Origin: Escherichia phage vB_EcoM_ACG-C40
Sequence record: NC_019399.1
Reading direction: 5' to 3' (one strand)
DNA: 64,000 nt
The position numbers and the translations under genes were made by a program. Each line of letters begins with the position of its first letter. Position 1 is the first letter of the stretch. Under the pieces are notes generated by a model. It was not told where the DNA came from and made no database searches. It saw only the letters and a program-made list of their open reading frames with translations. Shown here in pieces: positions 1,525 to 36,989 of the stretch.

Positions 1525-3207
1525 TTAAACCATTACAGTAAATCGACCAACTTTCTTCATTTGAAGATGCTGACCATATTCTTGCGGGTCATGGTCTTTA
1601 TGCGAAATTATAAAAACATTAGTGTTTTTCATTGAATTTATAATATTAGCTACACCTTTAATACCTTCGGCATCAAATGACCCATCAAACACTTCATCAA
1701 GAATTAATGTACTAATACTAACACCAGATACGATAGAAGCAATATCACGCCAAGTAAATAAAAGAGCAATATCAATTCGTGCCTTTTCACCTTCACTAAA
1801 TGAAGCATAACTAAAATCTTCACGACCACGGGATTTAATTGTCTCATTAAATTCTTCATCTAATGTAAACACATAATCCGCTTCCATTATTTTAAGATAA
1901 TGGTTAATCTGCTTATTAAATAATGGAATGTACTTTTTAATAATAGCACCTTTAATACCAGAATCTTTGAGCATATCAGTCAAAATTCCTCGGTGGTATT
2001 TTTCCATTACTAAATTAGTTTTTGTCTTAACAATTTTATCAAGTTCTTCTTGAAGCAGTGCTATTTCATCAGCATGGTCAATAAACTCAGAAGATGCTTT
2101 TTCTATAGCCGCTTTAACCTTTTTAGCTTTATCTACTGCTGCGATCAGAGATTGCTTTTTATTGCGAATATCATTTGCCAACGACTGTTGGGTTTTAATA
2201 TTATCTCGGTATTCATCAACAAGAACTTTTAAATTATCACGGTGTGTTGAAAGCTGTTCAAACGAATGCGTACATTCAGAAACTTTATCTTTAATTTTAG
2301 AAACAACTTTATCACCGGAACTCAATTGTGACAAACAGGTTGGACATAATCCACCTTCGTGATACATATTAATGACTTTATTATACGAGTCAATTTTTGA
2401 TTTAATTAAAACTGCTTCTTGACCGATTTTATTAAATGCATCAGTCGGGTCTTCATCTAAAACAATATTAACTAATCTTTCATTAGCTTTTTCTATTTCC
2501 GATTTTAGCGTTCTAGCTTCTTTTGCCAAATCATCATACATATTTTGCAGACGAGTAAGATTGTCACCCGTTAATTTTTTCTGGCGTTCAACGTTATCAT
2601 TATATATTTTAATTTGTTGGATAATACTATCTTTTTTAACTTCAAGCACTTGGTTTTGTGAATTTAATTCACGTATTAGTGCTTTATTAAGCTTATCCAT
2701 TTCAGCTAATGTTCCTACCTCAAGCAGGTCTTCCACAAGCTTTCTTCGCGCAGGGGTCGACAAACCCATGAAAGGGGTATACCCTGCTGTACCAAGGACA
2801 ACAATCTGCTTGAAACTGGCATATGACATTCCGATAAGCTGTTCAAATTCTGCTTGGAAATCTTTACTGCTGGCAGATTCATTAAGACGTGTACCGTTAA
2901 CGGTGATTTCGAAAACGTTTGGTTTTTGTCCTCTTTTGATATAGTACTTTTTCTCATCATATTCCATCCACAGTTCAACTAAAAGTTCTTTCTTATTTGT
3001 GCTGTTTATTAATTGACCTTTCTTTACATCACGAAATGGCTTGCCAAAAAGCCCAAATGTGATGGCTTCTAGCATAGTAGACTTACCACCGCCATTTCGT
3101 CCAGTAATAAGAGTTTTTTGAACCTTATCTAATTGAATGTCAATCCCATTTTGACCAACTGACATTATATTTTTATATTTTACTCTATTAAGTTTAAAAT
3201 TCTTCAC
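1525..3207 (-). CDS. 46: recombination endonuclease subunit gp46 (SbcC/Rad50-like ATPase)
   Basis: 560 aa; Walker A GRNGGGKST; long coiled coil; GTG start with AAGGA SD. Confidence 0.92.
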   Translation of the reverse strand: MKNFKLNRVKYKNIMSVGQNGIDIQLDKVQKTLITGRNGGGKSTMLEAITFGLFGKPFRDVKKGQLINSTNKKELLVELWMEYDEKKYYIKRGQKPNVFEITVNGTRLNESASSKDFQAEFEQLIGMSYASFKQIVVLGTAGYTPFMGLSTPARRKLVEDLLEVGTLAEMDKLNKALIRELNSQNQVLEVKKDSIIQQIKIYNDNVERQKKLTGDNLTRLQNMYDDLAKEARTLKSEIEKANERLVNIVLDEDPTDAFNKIGQEAVLIKSKIDSYNKVINMYHEGGLCPTCLSQLSSGDKVVSKIKDKVSECTHSFEQLSTHRDNLKVLVDEYRDNIKTQQSLANDIRNKKQSLIAAVDKAKKVKAAIEKASSEFIDHADEIALLQEELDKIVKTKTNLVMEKYHRGILTDMLKDSGIKGAIIKKYIPLFNKQINHYLKIMEADYVFTLDEEFNETIKSRGREDFSYASFSEGEKARIDIALLFTWRDIASIVSGVSISTLILDEVFDGSFDAEGIKGVANIINSMKNTNVFIISHKDHDPQEYGQHLQMKKVGRFTVMV

Positions 3208-4848: not shown

Positions 4849-6049
4849 ATTTTGTAATAATGTCAAACTGTTCTTTAAAGCAGAAGCTTGAATCTTGATG
4901 CTGATACAAAAATTCATATGCTTTTTCTCGCTCACGGTCATAAAGAGCTCGGTCAGATGACAGTTCTTTAATACGTTCAAATGTTGATTCCATGTCATTT
5001 TCATCAAACCAAATGATACCGCTATCATGCGAGGTCAAAGGAGTATTATCAACACGGAATTTTAAATTTTCGCCAGTAGATTTCCAGAAAACAGGAATTG
5101 TACCGCAAGCACCTAATTCAAGATGAGTATATTCTAAAGAACGTTGTAGATATTTTTTATCCAACTTACTCAACTGATAACCAAAACCGGATTTACTCAT
5201 ACGTTCAAGCATTTCGCTATTTACATAACGGTCAAGAATTTGCGTTGGCAAATTAGGAGCAATTTTAATTTGGTCTACTTGATGAAGACGATAATACTCG
5301 TATGGAATTCCTTTTTCTTTAATAAGAATGAACGCTGGAGAACGTTCCAGACCTTCCATAATAGTACTTAGTCCTGCAGGTTTAAGATGTTTTTCATGAA
5401 AATCAAACATCTGATAAAAACCTTTCCATGTAGTCGTACGACCAATCCAACGGTTGATATTCATGTTAATTTCAGAAACATCTTTCCAGTAGGTTGACCG
5501 AACCTTCGCAATATCCATAGGAGGCTGAAAGTTATATACTGTCGGTGCTTCTTCAATATCATCAAACAGAGAAACAGTTTCTGGATACCATTCTTTCATC
5601 AGAACTTTATTAAAATCACCATTATCAGAATGACTAAAAATAACATCAGCTCGACGAACAGTTTCTTCTAATCCCAAATTTCGACGCAAAGAAAGAGAAG
5701 AATGGTCATGTTGATAAACTACAACACGAATAGAAGGTTTAATATTATCTAAAAGTTTTTTATAGTTATTAATCGTGGCTTCTTGAACGGAAGTAGCAGG
5801 AACAGAATTAATAATTAGAATATCACAATCATTAATCAGTTTAAGTGCTTTATCGTATTCTTTAGCTAAAATAACTGGAATTGAAAATGATTTGTGGTCA
5901 TGAGAACTTGTACGAGTAAATGATTTATCTTTAGCATAAACCAAAGTTACTTCATGACCATTTTTAATAAACCAATCACGTTGCTCGAGTGAGAATTTTG
6001 TTACACCACAACCTTCAAGACCCCGAGCCAGAAAAATGCATACTTTCAT
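4847..6049 (-). CDS. a-gt: DNA alpha-glucosyltransferase
   Basis: 400 aa, near-identical to T4 alpha-GT as recalled. Confidence 0.93.
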   Translation of the reverse strand: MKVCIFLARGLEGCGVTKFSLEQRDWFIKNGHEVTLVYAKDKSFTRTSSHDHKSFSIPVILAKEYDKALKLINDCDILIINSVPATSVQEATINNYKKLLDNIKPSIRVVVYQHDHSSLSLRRNLGLEETVRRADVIFSHSDNGDFNKVLMKEWYPETVSLFDDIEEAPTVYNFQPPMDIAKVRSTYWKDVSEINMNINRWIGRTTTWKGFYQMFDFHEKHLKPAGLSTIMEGLERSPAFILIKEKGIPYEYYRLHQVDQIKIAPNLPTQILDRYVNSEMLERMSKSGFGYQLSKLDKKYLQRSLEYTHLELGACGTIPVFWKSTGENLKFRVDNTPLTSHDSGIIWFDENDMESTFERIKELSSDRALYDREREKAYEFLYQHQDSSFCFKEQFDIITK

Positions 6050-30776: not shown

Positions 30777-31250
30777 TTATTTGAACGATTTAACGTACTG
30801 AATAGAACCTTTACTATTTACAAAGGCAATTTTACCATTTTTATTATACATGGTAGCAGTACGCTGATAGCCATAAGTTTGCTTACCAGATTGATAACCA
30901 ACTAATGCAAAATTATCTTCACCCATTTTATTCTGTTTAGCGCGAATGCGTTCATGACCATGTGCCATAAGAACCTTAGCATCACCAGTTACAATGGATC
31001 GACGAGTTTTTTCATCTTCAACTGTATTAACAAAGTCGTCAAATGAATCAAATTTAGCATGAGATTTATTATACAGTTTTCCATCTACTGCATAATTATA
31101 TCCCTGTACATCCATCTCAACTTCTGTACCATCATCCAATACAGCAGTAATTTTCTGTCCTTTTTTAAATTTCAAAAGATCAGTAAAAGATTCAGCAATA
31201 ATTTGAGAATTAATAGCTGCTTCAGTGATAAATTCTTGATATGTTTTCAT
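30777..31250 (-). CDS. internal protein (IPIII/IPII-like) with capsid-targeting leader
   Basis: 157 aa; N-terminus MKTYQEFITE matches the T4 internal-protein leader; own early promoter. Confidence 0.7.
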   Translation of the reverse strand: MKTYQEFITEAAINSQIIAESFTDLLKFKKGQKITAVLDDGTEVEMDVQGYNYAVDGKLYNKSHAKFDSFDDFVNTVEDEKTRRSIVTGDAKVLMAHGHERIRAKQNKMGEDNFALVGYQSGKQTYGYQRTATMYNKNGKIAFVNSKGSIQYVKSFK

Positions 31251-31304
31251 ATGTTTCCTTTAAATATTTTAATTAGTAATTTGTCTCTTCAAGCAACTGT
31301 GAAT

Positions 31305-31334
31305 ATACTATCACAATTCTAGGAGAAAGTAAAC
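31305..31334 (-). promoter_or_regulatory. early promoter (GTTTAC, 18 bp, TAGTAT)
   Basis: gtaaac 31329..31334; atacta 31305..31310. Confidence 0.55.
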
Positions 31335-31338
31335 AACT

Positions 31339-32307
<969 letters not shown>

Positions 32308-32326
<19 letters not shown>

Positions 32327-32796
32327 TCAGTGATAAAGTTATTTAAATTTTGAGTATATTTCTTTTCATCAAAAATCTTTTGTTGTCTGCGTAGCCGCCA
32401 TGGCATTTCAATGAACGTGTACCATATCCCAGATAATATTGATGCTGTAAAAATATTAACAAGTATGGTTAAAAGAATCCAATCTCCCGTTCTGTCTACT
32501 GGACTTTCTCCAAAGAAGCAAAATACAAATGATGTCACAGGAAAACTAATAATATACCACAGAATCATAATCTTATCTGTGAACCAATCAGTGTTCGTTA
32601 ACTTAGCACGACCATTTTGAATACACACGAATTTATCATCTGTTACAGTAGATGGCTTAACTGCTTGATATCCCATTCTAAACTCCCTAATCAGCAAATT
32701 TTTCATATCTTCGGAACAGCCATTCCAGTCAACTCTATCAACTGAAATGCCATCATCCCCATCATCTAAATCATACCAGCGAGTTTTTAAAATCAT
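32308..32796 (-). CDS. membrane protein, paralog family member 3
   Basis: 162 aa; TM helices; C-terminal motif ...FITECRKLK. Confidence 0.5.
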
Positions 32797-33167
32797 TTGA
32801 TTTTCCTACAATCATTCACGAATTCTTTCATTGATTCATTTTCAATATAAGACATGTAGTTATTATATTCTTTTAATTGTATTTTGTAATCCTTTTTTCT
32901 TTGCCAATTTATTTTAAAATTATCATAATGAAAATATAAAATAATACCAAAGAATGAAAATAATGAAATCGCTATAGTATAATGAAGTTCACTCCAAACT
33001 TCTATTATATCTACTATACCGCTGACATTACTGCGGATGTTTAAAATAATACAGTCAATCATTAATCCAATAAGACTACCCGCAAGAGCTGCAGCCAACG
33101 CCACAGCAAAAATTAAAAATGACTCAGAAAACGAATATTTGACTTTATTTAGTTTTGGCTTTTGCAT
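32793..33167 (-). CDS. membrane protein, paralog family member 2
   Basis: 124 aa; TM helices; C-terminal ...FVNDCRKIK. Confidence 0.5.
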   Translation of the reverse strand: MQKPKLNKVKYSFSESFLIFAVALAAALAGSLIGLMIDCIILNIRSNVSGIVDIIEVWSELHYTIAISLFSFFGIILYFHYDNFKINWQRKKDYKIQLKEYNNYMSYIENESMKEFVNDCRKIK

Positions 33168-33562
33168 CGTGATTCCTTAACAAATTTCATAATTTCATCA
33201 AATTCATACGCGGCAAGTTTAAGCTGATGTTCCTTTTTAATCTTTTTACACTGTGCTTTCCAATCACGTACACGTTTACGATAATGTCTTCCTTGATACC
33301 AATATCCTATCCAATTTACAGGTACTAATAAAAGTGGAACTATTAATGGAAGAATTAGCATTAACACAAGTATTTCGCCAGAATCAATATCAGTCATAAC
33401 ATCTAAAACACCTCCAATAATCAATAGAATTACAAATGATATGAGTATAACAGGACCTATTAACACATCAGTAGAAATTATCTGACGCTTTGGTTCATAC
33501 TTCACAGGTTTACTTGGAAGGTATAGTGATGGTTTTGACATATTCTCTACATTCCTTAACAA
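33149..33562 (-). CDS. membrane protein, paralog family member 1
   Basis: 137 aa; TM helices; C-terminal ...FVKESRCK. Confidence 0.5.
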   Translation of the reverse strand: MLRNVENMSKPSLYLPSKPVKYEPKRQIISTDVLIGPVILISFVILLIIGGVLDVMTDIDSGEILVLMLILPLIVPLLLVPVNWIGYWYQGRHYRKRVRDWKAQCKKIKKEHQLKLAAYEFDEIMKFVKESRCKSQN

Positions 33563-34124
33563 ATTTTTCTAGTAATAAATCGCTTTCAAAACTAGGATTT
33601 TCCACGAATTTATCAAAAAGATCATCAACAATAGTTAAGATATTCTTTTTACTAAGAATACGTTTATTTTCATGCTTCGTTTCAGAATCAACTATAAGAG
33701 TAAAGAAATATTTCTTTCCCTGAAATTTTACTGTAGTATCAATATAGAATAAATTTGACTTTTGTAAGTTACGTTTAAACCATGCGTCACTTAAACTATA
33801 AACACCGAGATAATCAAAATCGTCGTTTAAATAACATACTGTCCATTCAGGAGAAATGAAATCAGTAAATTCAACATCAAAATCACACGTCAATGAATGA
33901 ATTGATTCAATACTGTTAATAAGTATTCCAGGACGTATTAAAGACTTTTTACCTCTGGAAAATCTTCCAGAAAGACTTTCATTAGTTTCATATGAAGAAC
34001 CCCAATAATAATTACGCCCTTCTGCCATACGTTTAAGAGCATTTAATAATTGGTCTGGAACATCAACTTGTCTTTGGAATTCTTCAAACATTGAATTGAA
34101 ATCACTTTGCATTTTCATTTTCAT
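33510..34124 (-). CDS. hypothetical protein sharing the paralog C-terminal motif
   Basis: 204 aa; C-terminal ...EKFVKECREYVK; GGAG SD. Confidence 0.5.
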   Translation of the reverse strand: MKMKMQSDFNSMFEEFQRQVDVPDQLLNALKRMAEGRNYYWGSSYETNESLSGRFSRGKKSLIRPGILINSIESIHSLTCDFDVEFTDFISPEWTVCYLNDDFDYLGVYSLSDAWFKRNLQKSNLFYIDTTVKFQGKKYFFTLIVDSETKHENKRILSKKNILTIVDDLFDKFVENPSFESDLLLEKFVKECREYVKTITIPSK

Positions 34125-34141
34125 TCCTATTTACTCCAAGT

Positions 34142-34163
34142 ATAAGGGGCCGAAGCCCCTTAT
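34142..34163 (-). other. UUCG-tetraloop hairpin
   Basis: ataaggggccgaagccccttat. Confidence 0.45.
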
Positions 34164-34165
34164 CA

Positions 34166-34759
34166 TTATTTCAGAGAATTAATGTATTCCTGAACATCGG
34201 CAGAGGTAGTTTCAACCCCAGAAATATTACCGTTAAAGGTTTCAACTCGAGCAAGGGTATCTTCAATATCAACCTTAGTCAGTGCTGCAATTTCAACTAC
34301 ATCATCAGCAGTACTAATTCCAAGGGCATTTGCTGCACGAGTTTCACGGATATATTCCAATTTAACCGCAAGTTCTTGACGAGCATCATCTAACTCAACT
34401 ACTTTCTTGGCGATTTCAATTCGCATTTCAGCATAACCGTCAGCCTTAGTAGTCAACTGCTCAGCTGTTCGACGATATAGCAAACCGAGTTTAGCATGCA
34501 TTGTTACATCTTGGCCTTCGGAAAGAAGTTTACGAATTTCACGCTCTTTTGATTCGGCCTGTCGATTCTTTTCGATAACAAGTTCACGAATACGTTTTTC
34601 TTCGTTAATAGATTTAACAGAAGCAGTTTTTAGATCTTTAATTTTATCAAGTAGTTTTGCTGCTGCGGCAGTATACTGTTCTTCGACAGATAGATTTTTA
34701 GCCATAGCAGAACCAAGTTTAGTGCGAATAAACTCAACAATTTTCTTCAGTGTGTTCAT
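34166..34759 (-). CDS. coiled-coil protein, possibly PspA/IM30-like
   Basis: 197 aa; N-terminal amphipathic segment then long heptad-like charged helices. Confidence 0.4.
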
Positions 34760-34863
34760 AGTATTTCCTTAGGTTGATTAAGATTTAAAATCCGTAAAAG
34801 TAGTATTATACTCTATCATCAAGTTACAGGCTCATAATATCTCAATCATGAGCCTGTGTAAAC

Positions 34864-35127
34864 TTATTTCATATTATTGAAATATTCTTCAGCAATTTCA
34901 TCATTATCATGATAAACTTTAGAAGACAGTTTAACATAACTTTCAGCAGTGAACATGTTAATCACAACCTTTACAGTATACCACTGACCGTCTTCATTAC
35001 CCATTACTGCATAAGTTTCAAACATCGGATGGTCAGGACCGATAACTTTAATATCATTCACTGTACGACCGAAATCTTCTGAAACACATTTCATAAAGAA
35101 GTTGAACAGCTCACCGTAATTATCCAT
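34864..35127 (-). CDS. hypothetical protein, 87 aa
   Basis: ATG 35127 with GGAG SD; the track's TTG start lies inside the promoter. Confidence 0.45.
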   Translation of the reverse strand: MDNYGELFNFFMKCVSEDFGRTVNDIKVIGPDHPMFETYAVMGNEDGQWYTVKVVINMFTAESYVKLSSKVYHDNDEIAEEYFNNMK

Positions 35128-35170
35128 TTCATTCTCCAAGTTGTTTTCTGTATCAGTAGTTGATAGTTGT

Positions 35171-35200
35171 ATAGTACCATGGAAGGACAAGGATGTAAAC
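35171..35200 (-). promoter_or_regulatory. early promoter (GTTTAC, 18 bp, TACTAT)
   Basis: gtaaac 35195..35200; atagta 35171..35176. Confidence 0.6.
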
Positions 35201-35340
35201 CGTTTTGTGAAAAAATTTTTAAAAAGTTTTGGGGAATTCTAGGGCAGGGAGGGGAAATCAAAGGATAGGATAATATATTATAAAGGGTAGAAACTAAATG
35301 ATGTCTAGAGAGGCCTGGAAAGGCCTAGATACCAAAAAGC

Positions 35341-35362: not shown

Positions 35363-35662
35363 AGCCTTGCGGCAACCTTGTCGGGGTTCCACCTGCTAAG
35401 GCAAGTGTTTGTACGAAACGCCGGGATTCGAACCCGGTTATTAAGCAGTTGACGCTACTCAATATTTTTTAAAAGGCCATATCTCGACCATATCCGAACG
35501 TTCCGTCAAAAACGCTACTCGGCTTACGGCAAAGATATTTCCTCGAATCGATAATTCGGTGCGCCGTTTCTGCTGTGATGTAAGGGGACATTAACAAAAC
35601 ATAAAGATTTATTAATGCCAGTCCTTAAACAGGGAACATCAGTCCGACGACTTACCGGTAGC
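35363..35662 (-). ncRNA. candidate stable small RNA(s), possibly T4 species 1/2 (rnaC/rnaD) equivalents
   Basis: about 300 nt non-coding; tRNA-like T-arm CCGGGTTCGAATCCCGG on the minus strand; GAGTAGCGT repeated twice. Confidence 0.35.
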
Positions 35663-36042: not shown

Positions 36043-36118
36043 TGGTCGAGGCAGTAGGGATCGAACCTACGACCCAGGACTTAGAAGGTCCTTGCTCTTC
36101 CTTCTGAGCTATGCCCCG
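36043..36118 (-). tRNA. tRNA-Arg (anticodon UCU)
   Basis: hand-folded cloverleaf; 7-bp acceptor, GCTC/GAGC D-stem, loop CTTCTAA, T-loop TTCGATC, CCA encoded. Confidence 0.8.
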
Positions 36119-36122
36119 TAAT

Positions 36123-36198
36123 TGGGGTGACCGATGGGAGTCGAACCCATGACTACGAGAATCACAATCTCGAGTTCTACCAACTGAACTACGGCCAC
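36123..36198 (-). tRNA. tRNA-His (anticodon GUG)
   Basis: cloverleaf with loop TTGTGAT, discriminator C, CCA encoded; no encoded G-1. Confidence 0.65.
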
Positions 36199-36312
36199 AT
36201 TAATACCTACTCCAACAATCATGATGTCTTCACACGAAATTAAGAGAAGAGTGATCAGTTCAACCCCTATAATCGCGTCAAGTAGATATTAATGTGACAG
36301 TTGTCACAAATT

Positions 36313-36387
36313 TGGCGGACGTGATAGGATTCGAACCTATAACCAATCGCTTAACAGGCGATCGCTCTGCCATTGAGCTACACATCC
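36313..36387 (-). tRNA. tRNA-Asn (anticodon GUU)
   Basis: perfect anticodon stem ATCGC/GCGAT, loop CTGTTAA, T-loop TTCGAAT, CCA encoded. Confidence 0.7.
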
Positions 36388-36391
36388 AAAT

Positions 36392-36478
36392 TGGTGGGGA
36401 GTGATGGAGTCGAACCACCCGAGTCGCAATGACAATGAATTTACAGTCCACACCGCTACCTCTACGGGATAACTCCCC
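36392..36478 (-). tRNA. tRNA-Tyr (anticodon GUA), class II
   Basis: 87 nt; acceptor GGGGAGT/ACTCCCC; loop CTGTAAA; long variable arm; T-loop TTCGACT. Confidence 0.65.
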
Positions 36479-36490
36479 TAATTCATAATT

Positions 36491-36565
36491 TGGTGGCCCT
36501 GGGTGGAATTGAACCACCATCTGGCGATTATGAGTCGCTTGCTTGAACCTTCCAGCTACAGGGCC
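36491..36565 (-). tRNA. tRNA with CAU anticodon (Ile2 by T4 position, or Met)
   Basis: acceptor GGCCCTG/CAGGGCC; loop CTCATAA; CCA encoded. Confidence 0.7.
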
Positions 36566-36566
36566 T

Positions 36567-36642
36567 TGGTGCTGATTGACGGAATCGAACCGCCGACCTT
36601 CTCATTACAAGTGAGTTGCTCTACCTACTGAGCTAAATCAGC
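36567..36642 (-). tRNA. tRNA-Thr (anticodon UGU)
   Basis: 76 nt cloverleaf; loop CTTGTAA; T-loop TTCGATT. Confidence 0.8.
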
Positions 36643-36647
36643 AAAAC

Positions 36648-36737
36648 TGGCGGAGGCGATAGGATTTGAACCTATGAGTCGCCGGAGCGACTGCCGGTTT
36701 TCAAGACCGGTGCATTAAACCACTCTGCCACACCTCC
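36648..36737 (-). tRNA. tRNA-Ser (anticodon UGA), class II
   Basis: 90 nt; loop CTTGAAA; long variable arm; 2 nt from the tRNA-Pro 3' end. Confidence 0.8.
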
Positions 36738-36739
36738 AG

Positions 36740-36813
36740 TCTCCATACAAGGATTTGAACCTTGGACCTCCTGATCCCAAATCAGGCGCTCTACCAAACT
36801 GAGCTACACGGAG
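36740..36813 (-). tRNA. tRNA-Pro (anticodon UGG); CCA not encoded
   Basis: loop TTTGGGA; T-loop TTCAAAT; 3' end followed by CT then tRNA-Ser, a dimeric precursor arrangement. Confidence 0.8.
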
Positions 36814-36823
36814 TAAATTGAAT

Positions 36824-36897
<74 letters not shown>

Positions 36898-36902
36898 AAA
36901 TT

Positions 36903-36989
36903 TGGTGCGAGAAGTGGGACTCGAACCCACAAGGAAATCATTCCGCAGCATTTTAAGTGCTGTGCCTTTACCAATTTGACCATTCTCGC
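36903..36989 (-). tRNA. tRNA-Leu (anticodon UAA), class II
   Basis: 87 nt; GCGAGAATGGTCAAATTGG...; loop CTTAAAA; long variable arm. Confidence 0.85.

Follow-up and report, generated by a model that had tools for sequence, protein, structure and literature searches.

The stretch analysed here, 64,000 nucleotides (nt) of Escherichia phage vB_EcoM_ACG-C40 (NC_019399.1; hereafter the window), comes from a T-even phage (Tequatrovirus) and carries four consecutive small genes that are e.5, e.4, e.3 and e.2 according to the T4 reference annotation. All four lie on the minus strand, as do the junctions, motif codons and repeats described below, with e.6 upstream of them and nudE and then the lysozyme gene e downstream. 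The first gene, e.5 (33510-34124), encodes a soluble protein of 204 amino acids, and it is followed by e.4 (33149-33541; 130 amino acids, two transmembrane helices), e.3 (32793-33167; 124 amino acids, two transmembrane helices) and e.2 (32308-32796; 162 amino acids, with an N-terminal domain of ~75 residues before its two transmembrane helices). The four proteins end in the same short motif, and at each of their junctions the ribosome-binding site (RBS) of the next gene lies in or next to the motif codons. The comparisons described below indicate that the motif is kept as a peptide and that the ribosome-binding sites are overlaid on it opportunistically.

The gene identities were supported at several levels. 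Bases 31300-35300 were 95-96% identical to many Tequatrovirus genomes, and the block from e.5 to e.2 was 92.6% identical to T4. T4-type genomes with the same gene order had 92-97% DNA identity, and the synteny from e.6 to nudE held. Searches against PHROGs matched the proteins to their own families, namely phrog_2607 for e.5 (E = 1e-108), phrog_2604 for e.4 (E = 2.8e-70, with the match beginning at residue 8 of a 137-amino-acid open reading frame, ORF), phrog_2330 for e.3 (E = 1e-61) and phrog_2203 for e.2 (E = 3e-78), each over its full length. Precomputed Pfam entries on homologs were PF26896, PF26873 Phage_T4_Y06O (on e.4 homologs) and PF26876. Scans of the four proteins with Pfam-A, NCBIfam and PADLOC returned nothing above threshold.

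Four proteins end in a rare C-terminal motif

The original prediction, made from the letters of the window, was that a related motif ends all four proteins, and the translations agreed with it. The tails are FVKECREYVKTITIPSK in e.5, FVKESRCKSQN in e.4, FVNDCRKIK in e.3 and FITECRKLK in e.2, which conform to the nine-residue pattern Φ-x-x-F-[IV]-x-[ED]-C-R. In e.5, the 11 residues past FVKECR overlap the start of e.4, and in e.4 five residues follow the motif. A fifth carrier of the tail was found in ORF133c of the Mosigvirus RB69. When F[IVL]x[ED][CSI]R was searched in the 44,327 amino acids of the six-frame segments of the window, only five sites were found, and four of the five were the four tails. 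A T4-sized set of 130,218 amino acids, for which the window was combined with 1-50 kb and 100-169 kb of T4, again gave five sites, the fifth being internal to NrdH.

Conservation was then counted over 13 tails, which represent five families in three lineages. Both F and [IV] were present in 13/13 tails, as was a hydrophobic residue at position -3; [ED] and R were present in 12/12 and C in 9/12, and the x position was free. The hydrophobic positions -3, 0, +1 and +4 make a single helical stripe that is flanked by the invariant E/D and R. The motif survived overall identities of 25-53% between genera. In e.2 it was 6/6 identical between genera, compared with 25% for the whole protein, and it ranked among the top 1% of six-column windows.

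Shine-Dalgarno sequences overlie the tail codons

The motif is encoded by TTT GTT AAG GAA TGT AGA in e.5 (33546-33563), TTT GTT AAG GAA TCA CGA in e.4 (33167-33184), TTC GTG AAT GAT TGT AGG in e.3 (32805-32822) and TTT ATC ACT GAA TGC AGG in e.2 (32320-32337). Because the genes are packed stop over start, the Shine-Dalgarno (SD) sequence of a downstream gene must fall in the last codons of the gene before it. At the e.4/e.3 junction, where the genes overlap by 19 nt (33149-33167), AAGGAA at 33173-33178 stands 5 nt before ATG 33167, and at the e.3/e.2 junction, an ATGA overlap at 32793-32796, AGGAAA at 32802-32807, made up of the Arg codon and the Lys codon after it, leaves 5 nt to the e.2 ATG. 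It had been claimed that the Lys-Glu or Arg-Lys codons spell the next SD at these two junctions, and the junction sequences bear this out. The two remaining junctions have the same arrangement: e.5 and e.4 overlap by 32 nt, with AAGGAA (33552-33557) 10 nt before ATG 33541, and e.2 and nudE share an ATGA overlap, with AGGAAA (32317-32322) 5 nt before ATG 32311. The overlay is thus present at 4/4 junctions.

Two start codons had to be assigned for this description. The e.4 start is most likely ATG 33541, which gives 130 amino acids, because the T4 annotation places it there and the PHROG match begins at residue 8 of the mechanical 137-amino-acid ORF (33149-33562); the TTG at 33562 that opens this ORF is an unlikely start. 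The Nudix hydrolase gene nudE (31871-32311; Pfam NUDIX E = 3.8e-13) is the last gene of the overlapping chain. Its start is probably the sixth codon, ATG 32311, five codons later than annotated, giving a protein of 146 amino acids, because T2 does not have the upstream ATG and ATG 32311 has both the ATGA overlap and AGGAAA 5 nt upstream. The ATG annotated in T4 (window 32326) has no SD, and T2 has GAT TGC for GAA TGC there. The PEC04 annotation also gives a nudE of 146 amino acids.

Translational coupling had been proposed to hold the array together. The overlaps permit such coupling, but the junction mRNAs were no more structured than shuffled sequences: 90-nt RNAs centred on the four junctions showed no excess structure (z = -0.94, -0.34, 0.00 and +1.14). 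With unstructured junction RNAs the downstream initiation sites would be open, and they have good SDs; termination-reinitiation coupling may not be required at these junctions. Coupling enforced by mRNA structure that masks the downstream sites was ruled out by the same folding.

The motif is conserved where the ribosome-binding site is not

To separate the peptide from the RBS, tails from other lineages are informative. Mosigvirus Shf125875 (RB69-like) has seven extra ORFs between e.3 and e.2, and ORF133c is among them. This protein of 101 amino acids has two transmembrane helices and the tail FIKECRGK, which is encoded as AAA GAA TGT CGA, without AAGGA and with a CGA arginine; the SD downstream of it is drawn from the following CGA GGA AAA. 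The Mosigvirus e.5 tail, FIMECR (ATT ATG GAA), has lost AAGGAA. A third lineage was represented by a metagenomic contig with the order e.6-e.5-e.4-e.3, whose e.4 is a remote homolog (30% identity, E = 8.5e-6) that the exhaustive search described below brought up. Its e.5 ends in FIAECREY, with the motif codons TTT ATT GCT GAA TGT CGT, and the following ATG, with an AAAGGGG of its own, comes 19 nt later. For e.4 the contig has the tail FIKEVR, in which the codons AAG GAG GTT constitute a strong SD, and its e.3 leaves the contig end at ...DLETFIK.

A comparison of synonymous and non-synonymous divergence at the motif had been suggested as a check, and the conserved positions were found to vary synonymously only (TTT/TTC, TGT/TGC and AGA/AGG/CGA/CGT). 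Since the motif persists without SD overlap, changes only synonymously at its conserved positions and survives despite low overall identity, these codon comparisons show that selection acts on the motif as a peptide. As far as the three lineages reveal it, they also show the RBS overlay to be opportunistic and to differ between lineages, with the SD drawn from K-E codons, from R-K codons or from outside the motif. It had been argued that, if the proteins had no similarity past the last residues, the motif would be only a by-product of the RBS. The premise largely holds, as described in the next section, but the conclusion is wrong, because the peptide is kept where the SD is absent.

Relationships among the protein bodies

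The array had been taken to consist of duplicated membrane-protein paralogs. Pairwise BLAST between the four proteins was weak. When profiles were compared by hhalign with the motif included, probabilities were 76% for e.3/ORF133c, 68% for e.2/ORF133c, 58% for e.3/e.4 and 55% for e.2/e.3, and the alignments were collinear from the first or the second transmembrane helix to the end; as a control, any family against e.6 gave ~0%. For a test of the bodies, the motif and everything after it were removed, and decoys were made by column shuffles confined to each topological segment. Because such decoys keep the topological segments, shared architecture earns no credit.

In this test e.3/e.4 scored 21.5 against 4.3±3.4 for the decoys, a score reached by 1/150 decoys, and with profiles enriched by the third lineage the score was 25.5 against 8.9±5.1 (1/120 decoys). 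In addition, the N-termini of e.3 and e.4 both read M-x-[KR]-P-x-L, and the e.3 protein weakly matched the e.4 PHROG (E = 0.008). Motif-deleted pairs with e.2 or ORF133c stayed at decoy level (z = -1.4 to +1.7), and the scores of e.2 and ORF133c without the motif matched the level of unrelated T4 membrane proteins (Imm, Sp and Ac). On these profile comparisons e.3 and e.4 are probable paralogs, and e.2 and ORF133c have in common with them, as judged by the same scores, only the two-transmembrane hairpin plan and the tail. The proposal of a duplicated array is therefore supported for e.3 and e.4, which are similar without the motif, and is not supported for the rest, since pairs with e.2 are at decoy level and e.5 is soluble.

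Junction repeats and gene content among relatives

The recurrence of tail, SD and ATG at each gene end creates two pairs of direct repeats of 16-18 nt. Repeat A, AAATTTGTTAAGGAAT (16 nt), is found at e.5/e.4 (33551-33566) and e.4/e.3 (33172-33187); the two copies are exact and are the only ones in 64 kb, compared with 0.31 expected even at two mismatches. Repeat B (18 nt) reads TGTAGGAAAATCAAATGA at e.3/e.2 (32793-32810) and TGCAGGAAATTAAAATGA at e.2/nudE (32308-32325), giving the type B form TGYAGGAAAWTMAAATGA. Neither type has a further close copy in 64 kb.

A comparison of copy number across related phages had also been suggested, and gene content does vary among relatives, which include genomes without e.2, gene fusions and genomes with extra ORFs. 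By an estimate from coverage and identity counts, ~60 of ~500 Tequatrovirus records are without the full four-gene block. In T2, RB32 and similar phages, the match to the block does not begin before query position 486, which means that exactly e.2 is missing. The end of e.3 reads GAT TGC AGG AAA TTA AAA TGA aaaca both in T2 and in another genome without e.2 whose e.3 allele is different. The T2-type hybrid therefore consists of the e.3 body, the e.2-type tail and the nudE start, with e.2 gone exactly between the type B repeats. On this sequence evidence, the e.2-less form is the product expected of recombination between the type B repeats.

Other rearrangements keep the reading frame. UFV05 and UFV11 encode an in-frame chimera of 106 amino acids that joins e.4 residues 1-31 to e.2 residues ~88-162 and drops the remainder of e.4, the whole of e.3 and the N-terminal domain of e.2. 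Its breakpoint falls in a microhomology of 8 nt, TCCTGTGA, where both proteins have the [G/F]-P-V with which the first transmembrane helix begins. The Mosigvirus phiC120 (c120-type) is without a full e.3. In c120-type phages, ~100 nt after e.4 begin ATGCAAAAGCCTGAACTGA and contain an e.3-like start that soon hits a stop (phiC120 locus 4904-5374); from its sequence, this stretch looks like the remnant of a deleted e.3.

The T4 reference itself is atypical for e.2. There the gene is annotated with 102 amino acids (NC_000866 67652-67960), followed by a ~160-nt unannotated gap before nudE. The window and most relatives have the 162-amino-acid e.2 with two transmembrane helices and the tail, and forms of 102 and 122 amino acids recur elsewhere. 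By comparison, the T4 copy looks truncated or frameshifted.

Several further variants were noticed during these searches. A metagenomic e.4 variant of 69 amino acids has residues ~30-90, including both transmembrane helices, deleted in frame and keeps the N-terminal tail and the motif tail. In a protein of 97 amino acids, which may have arisen artificially during assembly or cloning, e.4 residues 1-35 are followed by unrelated sequence. Three consecutive small ORFs of Shf125875 between e.3 and e.2 (locus 2367-3161), corresponding to RB69 ORF136c, 137c and 138/139c, encode soluble proteins with one tail motif of their own, G-W-V-[SA]-S-S-x-x-C followed by the stop; the next SD comes after the stop codon. 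They form another group of adjacent genes with a common tail within this variable region.

Predicted topology, structure and evolutionary rates

Three of the proteins had been described as small membrane proteins. A hydropathy calculation, on which all transmembrane calls in this work are based, agreed by giving two transmembrane helices each in e.4, e.3 and e.2, and it found no transmembrane segment in e.5. In e.2, e.3, e.4 and ORF133c, basic N- and C-terminal flanks enclose an acidic inter-helix loop, and a tail of 25-45 residues ends in the motif. The tails of the membrane proteins would be cytoplasmic (N-in/C-in), because the basic flanks and acidic loops point that way under the positive-inside rule.

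In an AlphaFold2 model of e.2, with a predicted local distance difference test score (pLDDT) of 50.0 and a predicted template-modelling score of 0.26, which is too poor for a fold search, the motif ends a long helix that continues the second transmembrane helix. In the e.5 model (pLDDT 59.5) it lies within the C-terminal helix, residues 183-198. The PDB matches of the e.5 model were almost only small alarmone synthetases (RelQ/RelP), and they were weak (best E 1.3e-3, template-modelling score <=0.25). When PDB sequences were searched with a profile, an alarmone-synthetase-like fold of e.5 was not supported, and we regard it as no more than a lead. Folds like that of e.5 were also seen in the T4-like genera EcS1, F48, KaAlpha and Cronus, and the gene nudE, for the Nudix hydrolase, was noted two to three genes downstream of e.5.

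Within Tequatrovirus, the ratio of non-synonymous to synonymous substitution rates was 0.40 for e.2, 0.32 for e.3 and 0.31 for e.4, and it was 0.09 for e.5, 0.11 for nudE and 0.02 for both e and e.6. Between Tequatrovirus and Mosigvirus, e.2-e.5 had 25-53% identity compared with 88% for e.6. The families are also narrowly distributed: an exhaustive HMMER search with e.4 gave six matches in 1.84 billion representative proteins, a viral contig scan with the e.4 alignment gave only six loci, and word-indexed protein searches with e.3, e.5 and e.2 found close relatives only.

Neighbouring features

A C(UUCG)G-type hairpin, GGGGC-UUCG-GCCCC, lies between e.6 and e.5 (34142-34163, minus strand) at the upstream edge of the e.5-nudE chain. 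It folds at -20.5 kcal/mol (z = -2.6) and is the sole significantly stable structure of the block. Because no T-run follows it on the coding strand, it is a better candidate for an RNA-stability or processing element than for a terminator. At the downstream edge of the chain, just past the nudE stop and upstream of e, stands TATAAATA (31860-31867, minus strand), which we take to be the T4 late-promoter consensus. The T4 lysozyme gene e corresponds to the ORF at 31339-31833.

Upstream of e.5, e.6 (34166-34759) encodes a largely helical protein of 197 amino acids, which also stands beside e.5 in the metagenomic lineage; some GenBank records call it 'host specificity protein' without evident basis. 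An ORF of 157 amino acids at 30777-31250 begins MKTYQEFITEA, an N-terminus of the capsid-targeting-sequence type known from T4 internal proteins, which makes it an internal-protein gene immediately downstream of e, as ipIII is in T4. Ten tRNA genes (Arg, His, Asn, Tyr, Met, Thr, Ser, Pro, Gly and Leu) lie upstream of the block at 36043-36989, and a tRNA-like element with undetermined anticodon at 35411-35506 is located where T4 has rnaC and rnaD.

Discussion

The explanation that we favour, to which we would give a probability of roughly 60%, combines four elements: a shared tail selected as a peptide, an opportunistic RBS overlay, repeats that serve recombination, and a docking or assembly helix on accessory proteins. 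Selection keeps the peptide tail, and the SD of the next gene is overlaid opportunistically on the tail codons. T4-type recombination would use the resulting junction repeats, as well as further microhomologies, for the in-register loss, gain or fusion of genes. The tail is most likely a shared docking or assembly helix, as its conservation and the structural models suggest, and through it the soluble e.5 and the small hairpins of the inner membrane would meet a single partner, or one another, on the cytoplasmic side of the membrane. The e.2-e.5 genes themselves would be accessory host-interaction genes, and their products dispensable, fast-evolving host-interaction factors, because they have a narrow range, can be missing and evolve fast yet are under selection. 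Our literature searches on e.2-e.6 returned no paper, and the main texts of the genome-wide T4 screens by HIDEN-SEQ and CRISPRi-ART make no mention of these genes.

Several points weigh against this explanation. The function as a docking helix is argued solely from the way in which the motif is conserved and from a helix and a topology that are predictions, and both structure models are weak (pLDDT 59.5 and 50.0). The Cys is not universal, e.4 having S, I or V there. The comparison covers three lineages, of which two are close and the third consists of one contig of 2.2 kb. The motif Arg codon and the start that follows are, at most junctions, no more than ~10 nt apart, so that some RNA-level constraint is inseparable from the constraint on the peptide. 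Finally, the presence/absence pattern of e.2 could be compatible with an insertion rather than a deletion.

A different history, possible though clearly less probable, is that e.2, e.3, e.4 and ORF133c were all duplicated from one two-transmembrane ancestor, the tail being their slowest-evolving remnant, and that e.5 gained or donated the tail secondarily. The four membrane proteins do have one plan in common (a basic N-terminal tail, the first transmembrane helix, a short acidic loop, the second transmembrane helix, a basic/aromatic stretch, a helix and the motif), hhalign aligns them collinearly with probabilities of 55-76% when the motif is included, and the natural e.4::e.2 chimera breaks where hhalign aligns both proteins ([G/F]-P-V ... 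S-F-V). For e.3 and e.4 there is also the motif-free signal, the common N-terminus and the weak match of e.3 to the e.4 PHROG. Nevertheless, motif-free pairs with e.2 or ORF133c did no better than topology-preserving decoys or unrelated T4 membrane proteins, e.5 is soluble and of another fold, and two-transmembrane hairpins are too simple for topology to prove descent. We consider it rather unlikely, too, that the tail is a modular address tag, a cytoplasmic helix of nine residues which recruits changing early effectors (the soluble, enzyme-like e.5 and the membrane hairpins) to one host or phage hub, for example the strongly conserved e.6, with tag, SD and start forming a dual-coding recombination linker. 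Were this true, effector genes would be inserted, deleted and fused in register while keeping both the address and the expression of the next gene, and the system would be the coding-sequence counterpart of PeSL (promoter-early stem-loop) cassettes and of the capsid targeting sequence of the internal proteins, both discussed below.

Explanations at the RNA level fare worse. The motif could be merely a by-product of the downstream RBS and start region, with constraint on the RNA and none on the peptide, in keeping with the good SD that 4/4 window junctions have within the motif or directly behind it, at 5-10 nt from the ATG, with the identity of two junctions over 16 nt, and with the fact that in e.5 and e.4, where 11 and 5 residues follow the motif, the next ATG tracks the motif and not the stop. 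This is very improbable, however, because the motif occurs without SD content in ORF133c, Mosigvirus e.5 and metagenomic e.5, because F, [IV] and C play no SD role yet are invariant or nearly so, and because substitutions at the conserved positions are only synonymous, even the first-position change of AGA to CGA; K at the x position, moreover, is present in this window only where it is part of AAGGAA (e.5 and e.4). More improbable still is a tail that works in translation, as a nascent-peptide signal for termination and re-initiation or as an RNA operator for RegA. The proximity of the motif to the next start at most junctions would suit both forms of this idea, and the SELEX-derived RegA consensus aaAAUUGUUAUGUAA loosely resembles AAAUUUGUUAAGGAAUGUA at two junctions. 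We know of no arrest peptide that resembles the tail motif. Natural RegA sites are A+U-rich and unstructured and lie either at the initiator AUG or immediately 5' to it (PMC3014915), and by folding the junction RNAs are likewise unstructured. Against RegA, the match to the consensus is partial, the AUG in it is not the initiator and only 2/4 junctions have it, and the synonymous variation speaks against a fixed RNA operator. Furthermore, the e.4 start of the third lineage, 19 nt past the e.5 motif, counts against both the operator and the nascent peptide.

About half of the T4 genes are without assigned function, and e.2-e.5 are among them. A peptide that is conserved over five unrelated or barely related families could be used as bait for interaction partners. 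In addition, a protein motif, an RBS and a recombination substrate share ~20 nt at these junctions, and a comparison of lineages tells which of the constraints came first. For annotation, the T4 reference e.2 should be regarded as an apparently truncated copy, and nudE as probably beginning five codons later.

Comparison with known systems

Stop/start overlaps of the ATGA type with the SD inside the upstream gene are commonplace throughout T4 and occur in many operons. The e.5-nudE chain goes beyond such an ordinary overlap in that a single conserved peptide recurs at four junctions in a row and at each of them either provides the SD or borders on it. Superinfection exclusion had been named as a candidate function of such arrays, alongside envelope-targeted functions. 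Imm and Sp are small, early, envelope-associated proteins of T4 that act in superinfection exclusion. The e.2-e.4 proteins resemble them in being small, early and envelope-associated, but Imm and Sp are without the tail motif, and hhalign against Imm and Sp gave probabilities of 0.1-1.5%, that is, no similarity. Homology to Imm, Sp, Ac, 55.8 and 47.1 was ruled out by hhalign.

A closer parallel is found just downstream of e, where T4 encodes the internal proteins IPI, IPII and IPIII, which carry the capsid targeting sequence (CTS); ipII and ipIII have only this short capsid-targeting peptide in common, and at least one of these two is a host-range factor (PMC9391042). As in the e.2-e.5 tails, a terminal peptide of ~10 residues is the sole common part of otherwise unrelated, highly polymorphic accessory proteins encoded side by side, and it is after this example that the e.2-e.5 tail is read as a possible targeting or docking signal. 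The CTS, however, is N-terminal, is cleaved and directs packaging into the head, whereas the e.2-e.5 motif is C-terminal, has another sequence and is carried by membrane and soluble early proteins.

With regard to gene exchange, PeSL cassettes mediate modular shuffling in the hyperplastic regions of T4-type genomes (Arbiol et al., 2010, PMC2839356; Comeau et al., 2014, PMC4122927). Like them, the e.2-e.5 repeats are short gene-boundary repeats in a variable, non-essential ORFan region, where recombination adds, removes or swaps genes and leaves expression signals intact. Unlike PeSL cassettes, which are non-coding and consist of a sigma-70 promoter and a terminator stem-loop, the e.2-e.5 repeats are coding, measure 16-18 nt and leave no intergenic space; at the internal e.5-nudE junctions, a PeSL-type promoter with stem-loop was not found, there being neither intergenic space nor significant structure. 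T4 also amplifies and deletes segments at microhomologies of 6-10 bp (Srikant et al., 2022, PMC9391042), and the 8-nt breakpoint of the chimera and the 18-nt repeats that flank e.2 fit this mode of recombination. The laboratory deletions in that study occurred at arbitrary microhomologies, whereas the e.2-e.5 repeats would be kept by selection for the protein motif, and because they are so maintained, the products are in frame and the downstream start is kept. The arrangement adds a coding-sequence variant to the known routes by which T4-type phages shuffle accessory genes. It is a variation on terminal address peptides and repeat-mediated modular shuffling rather than a new kind of biological system.

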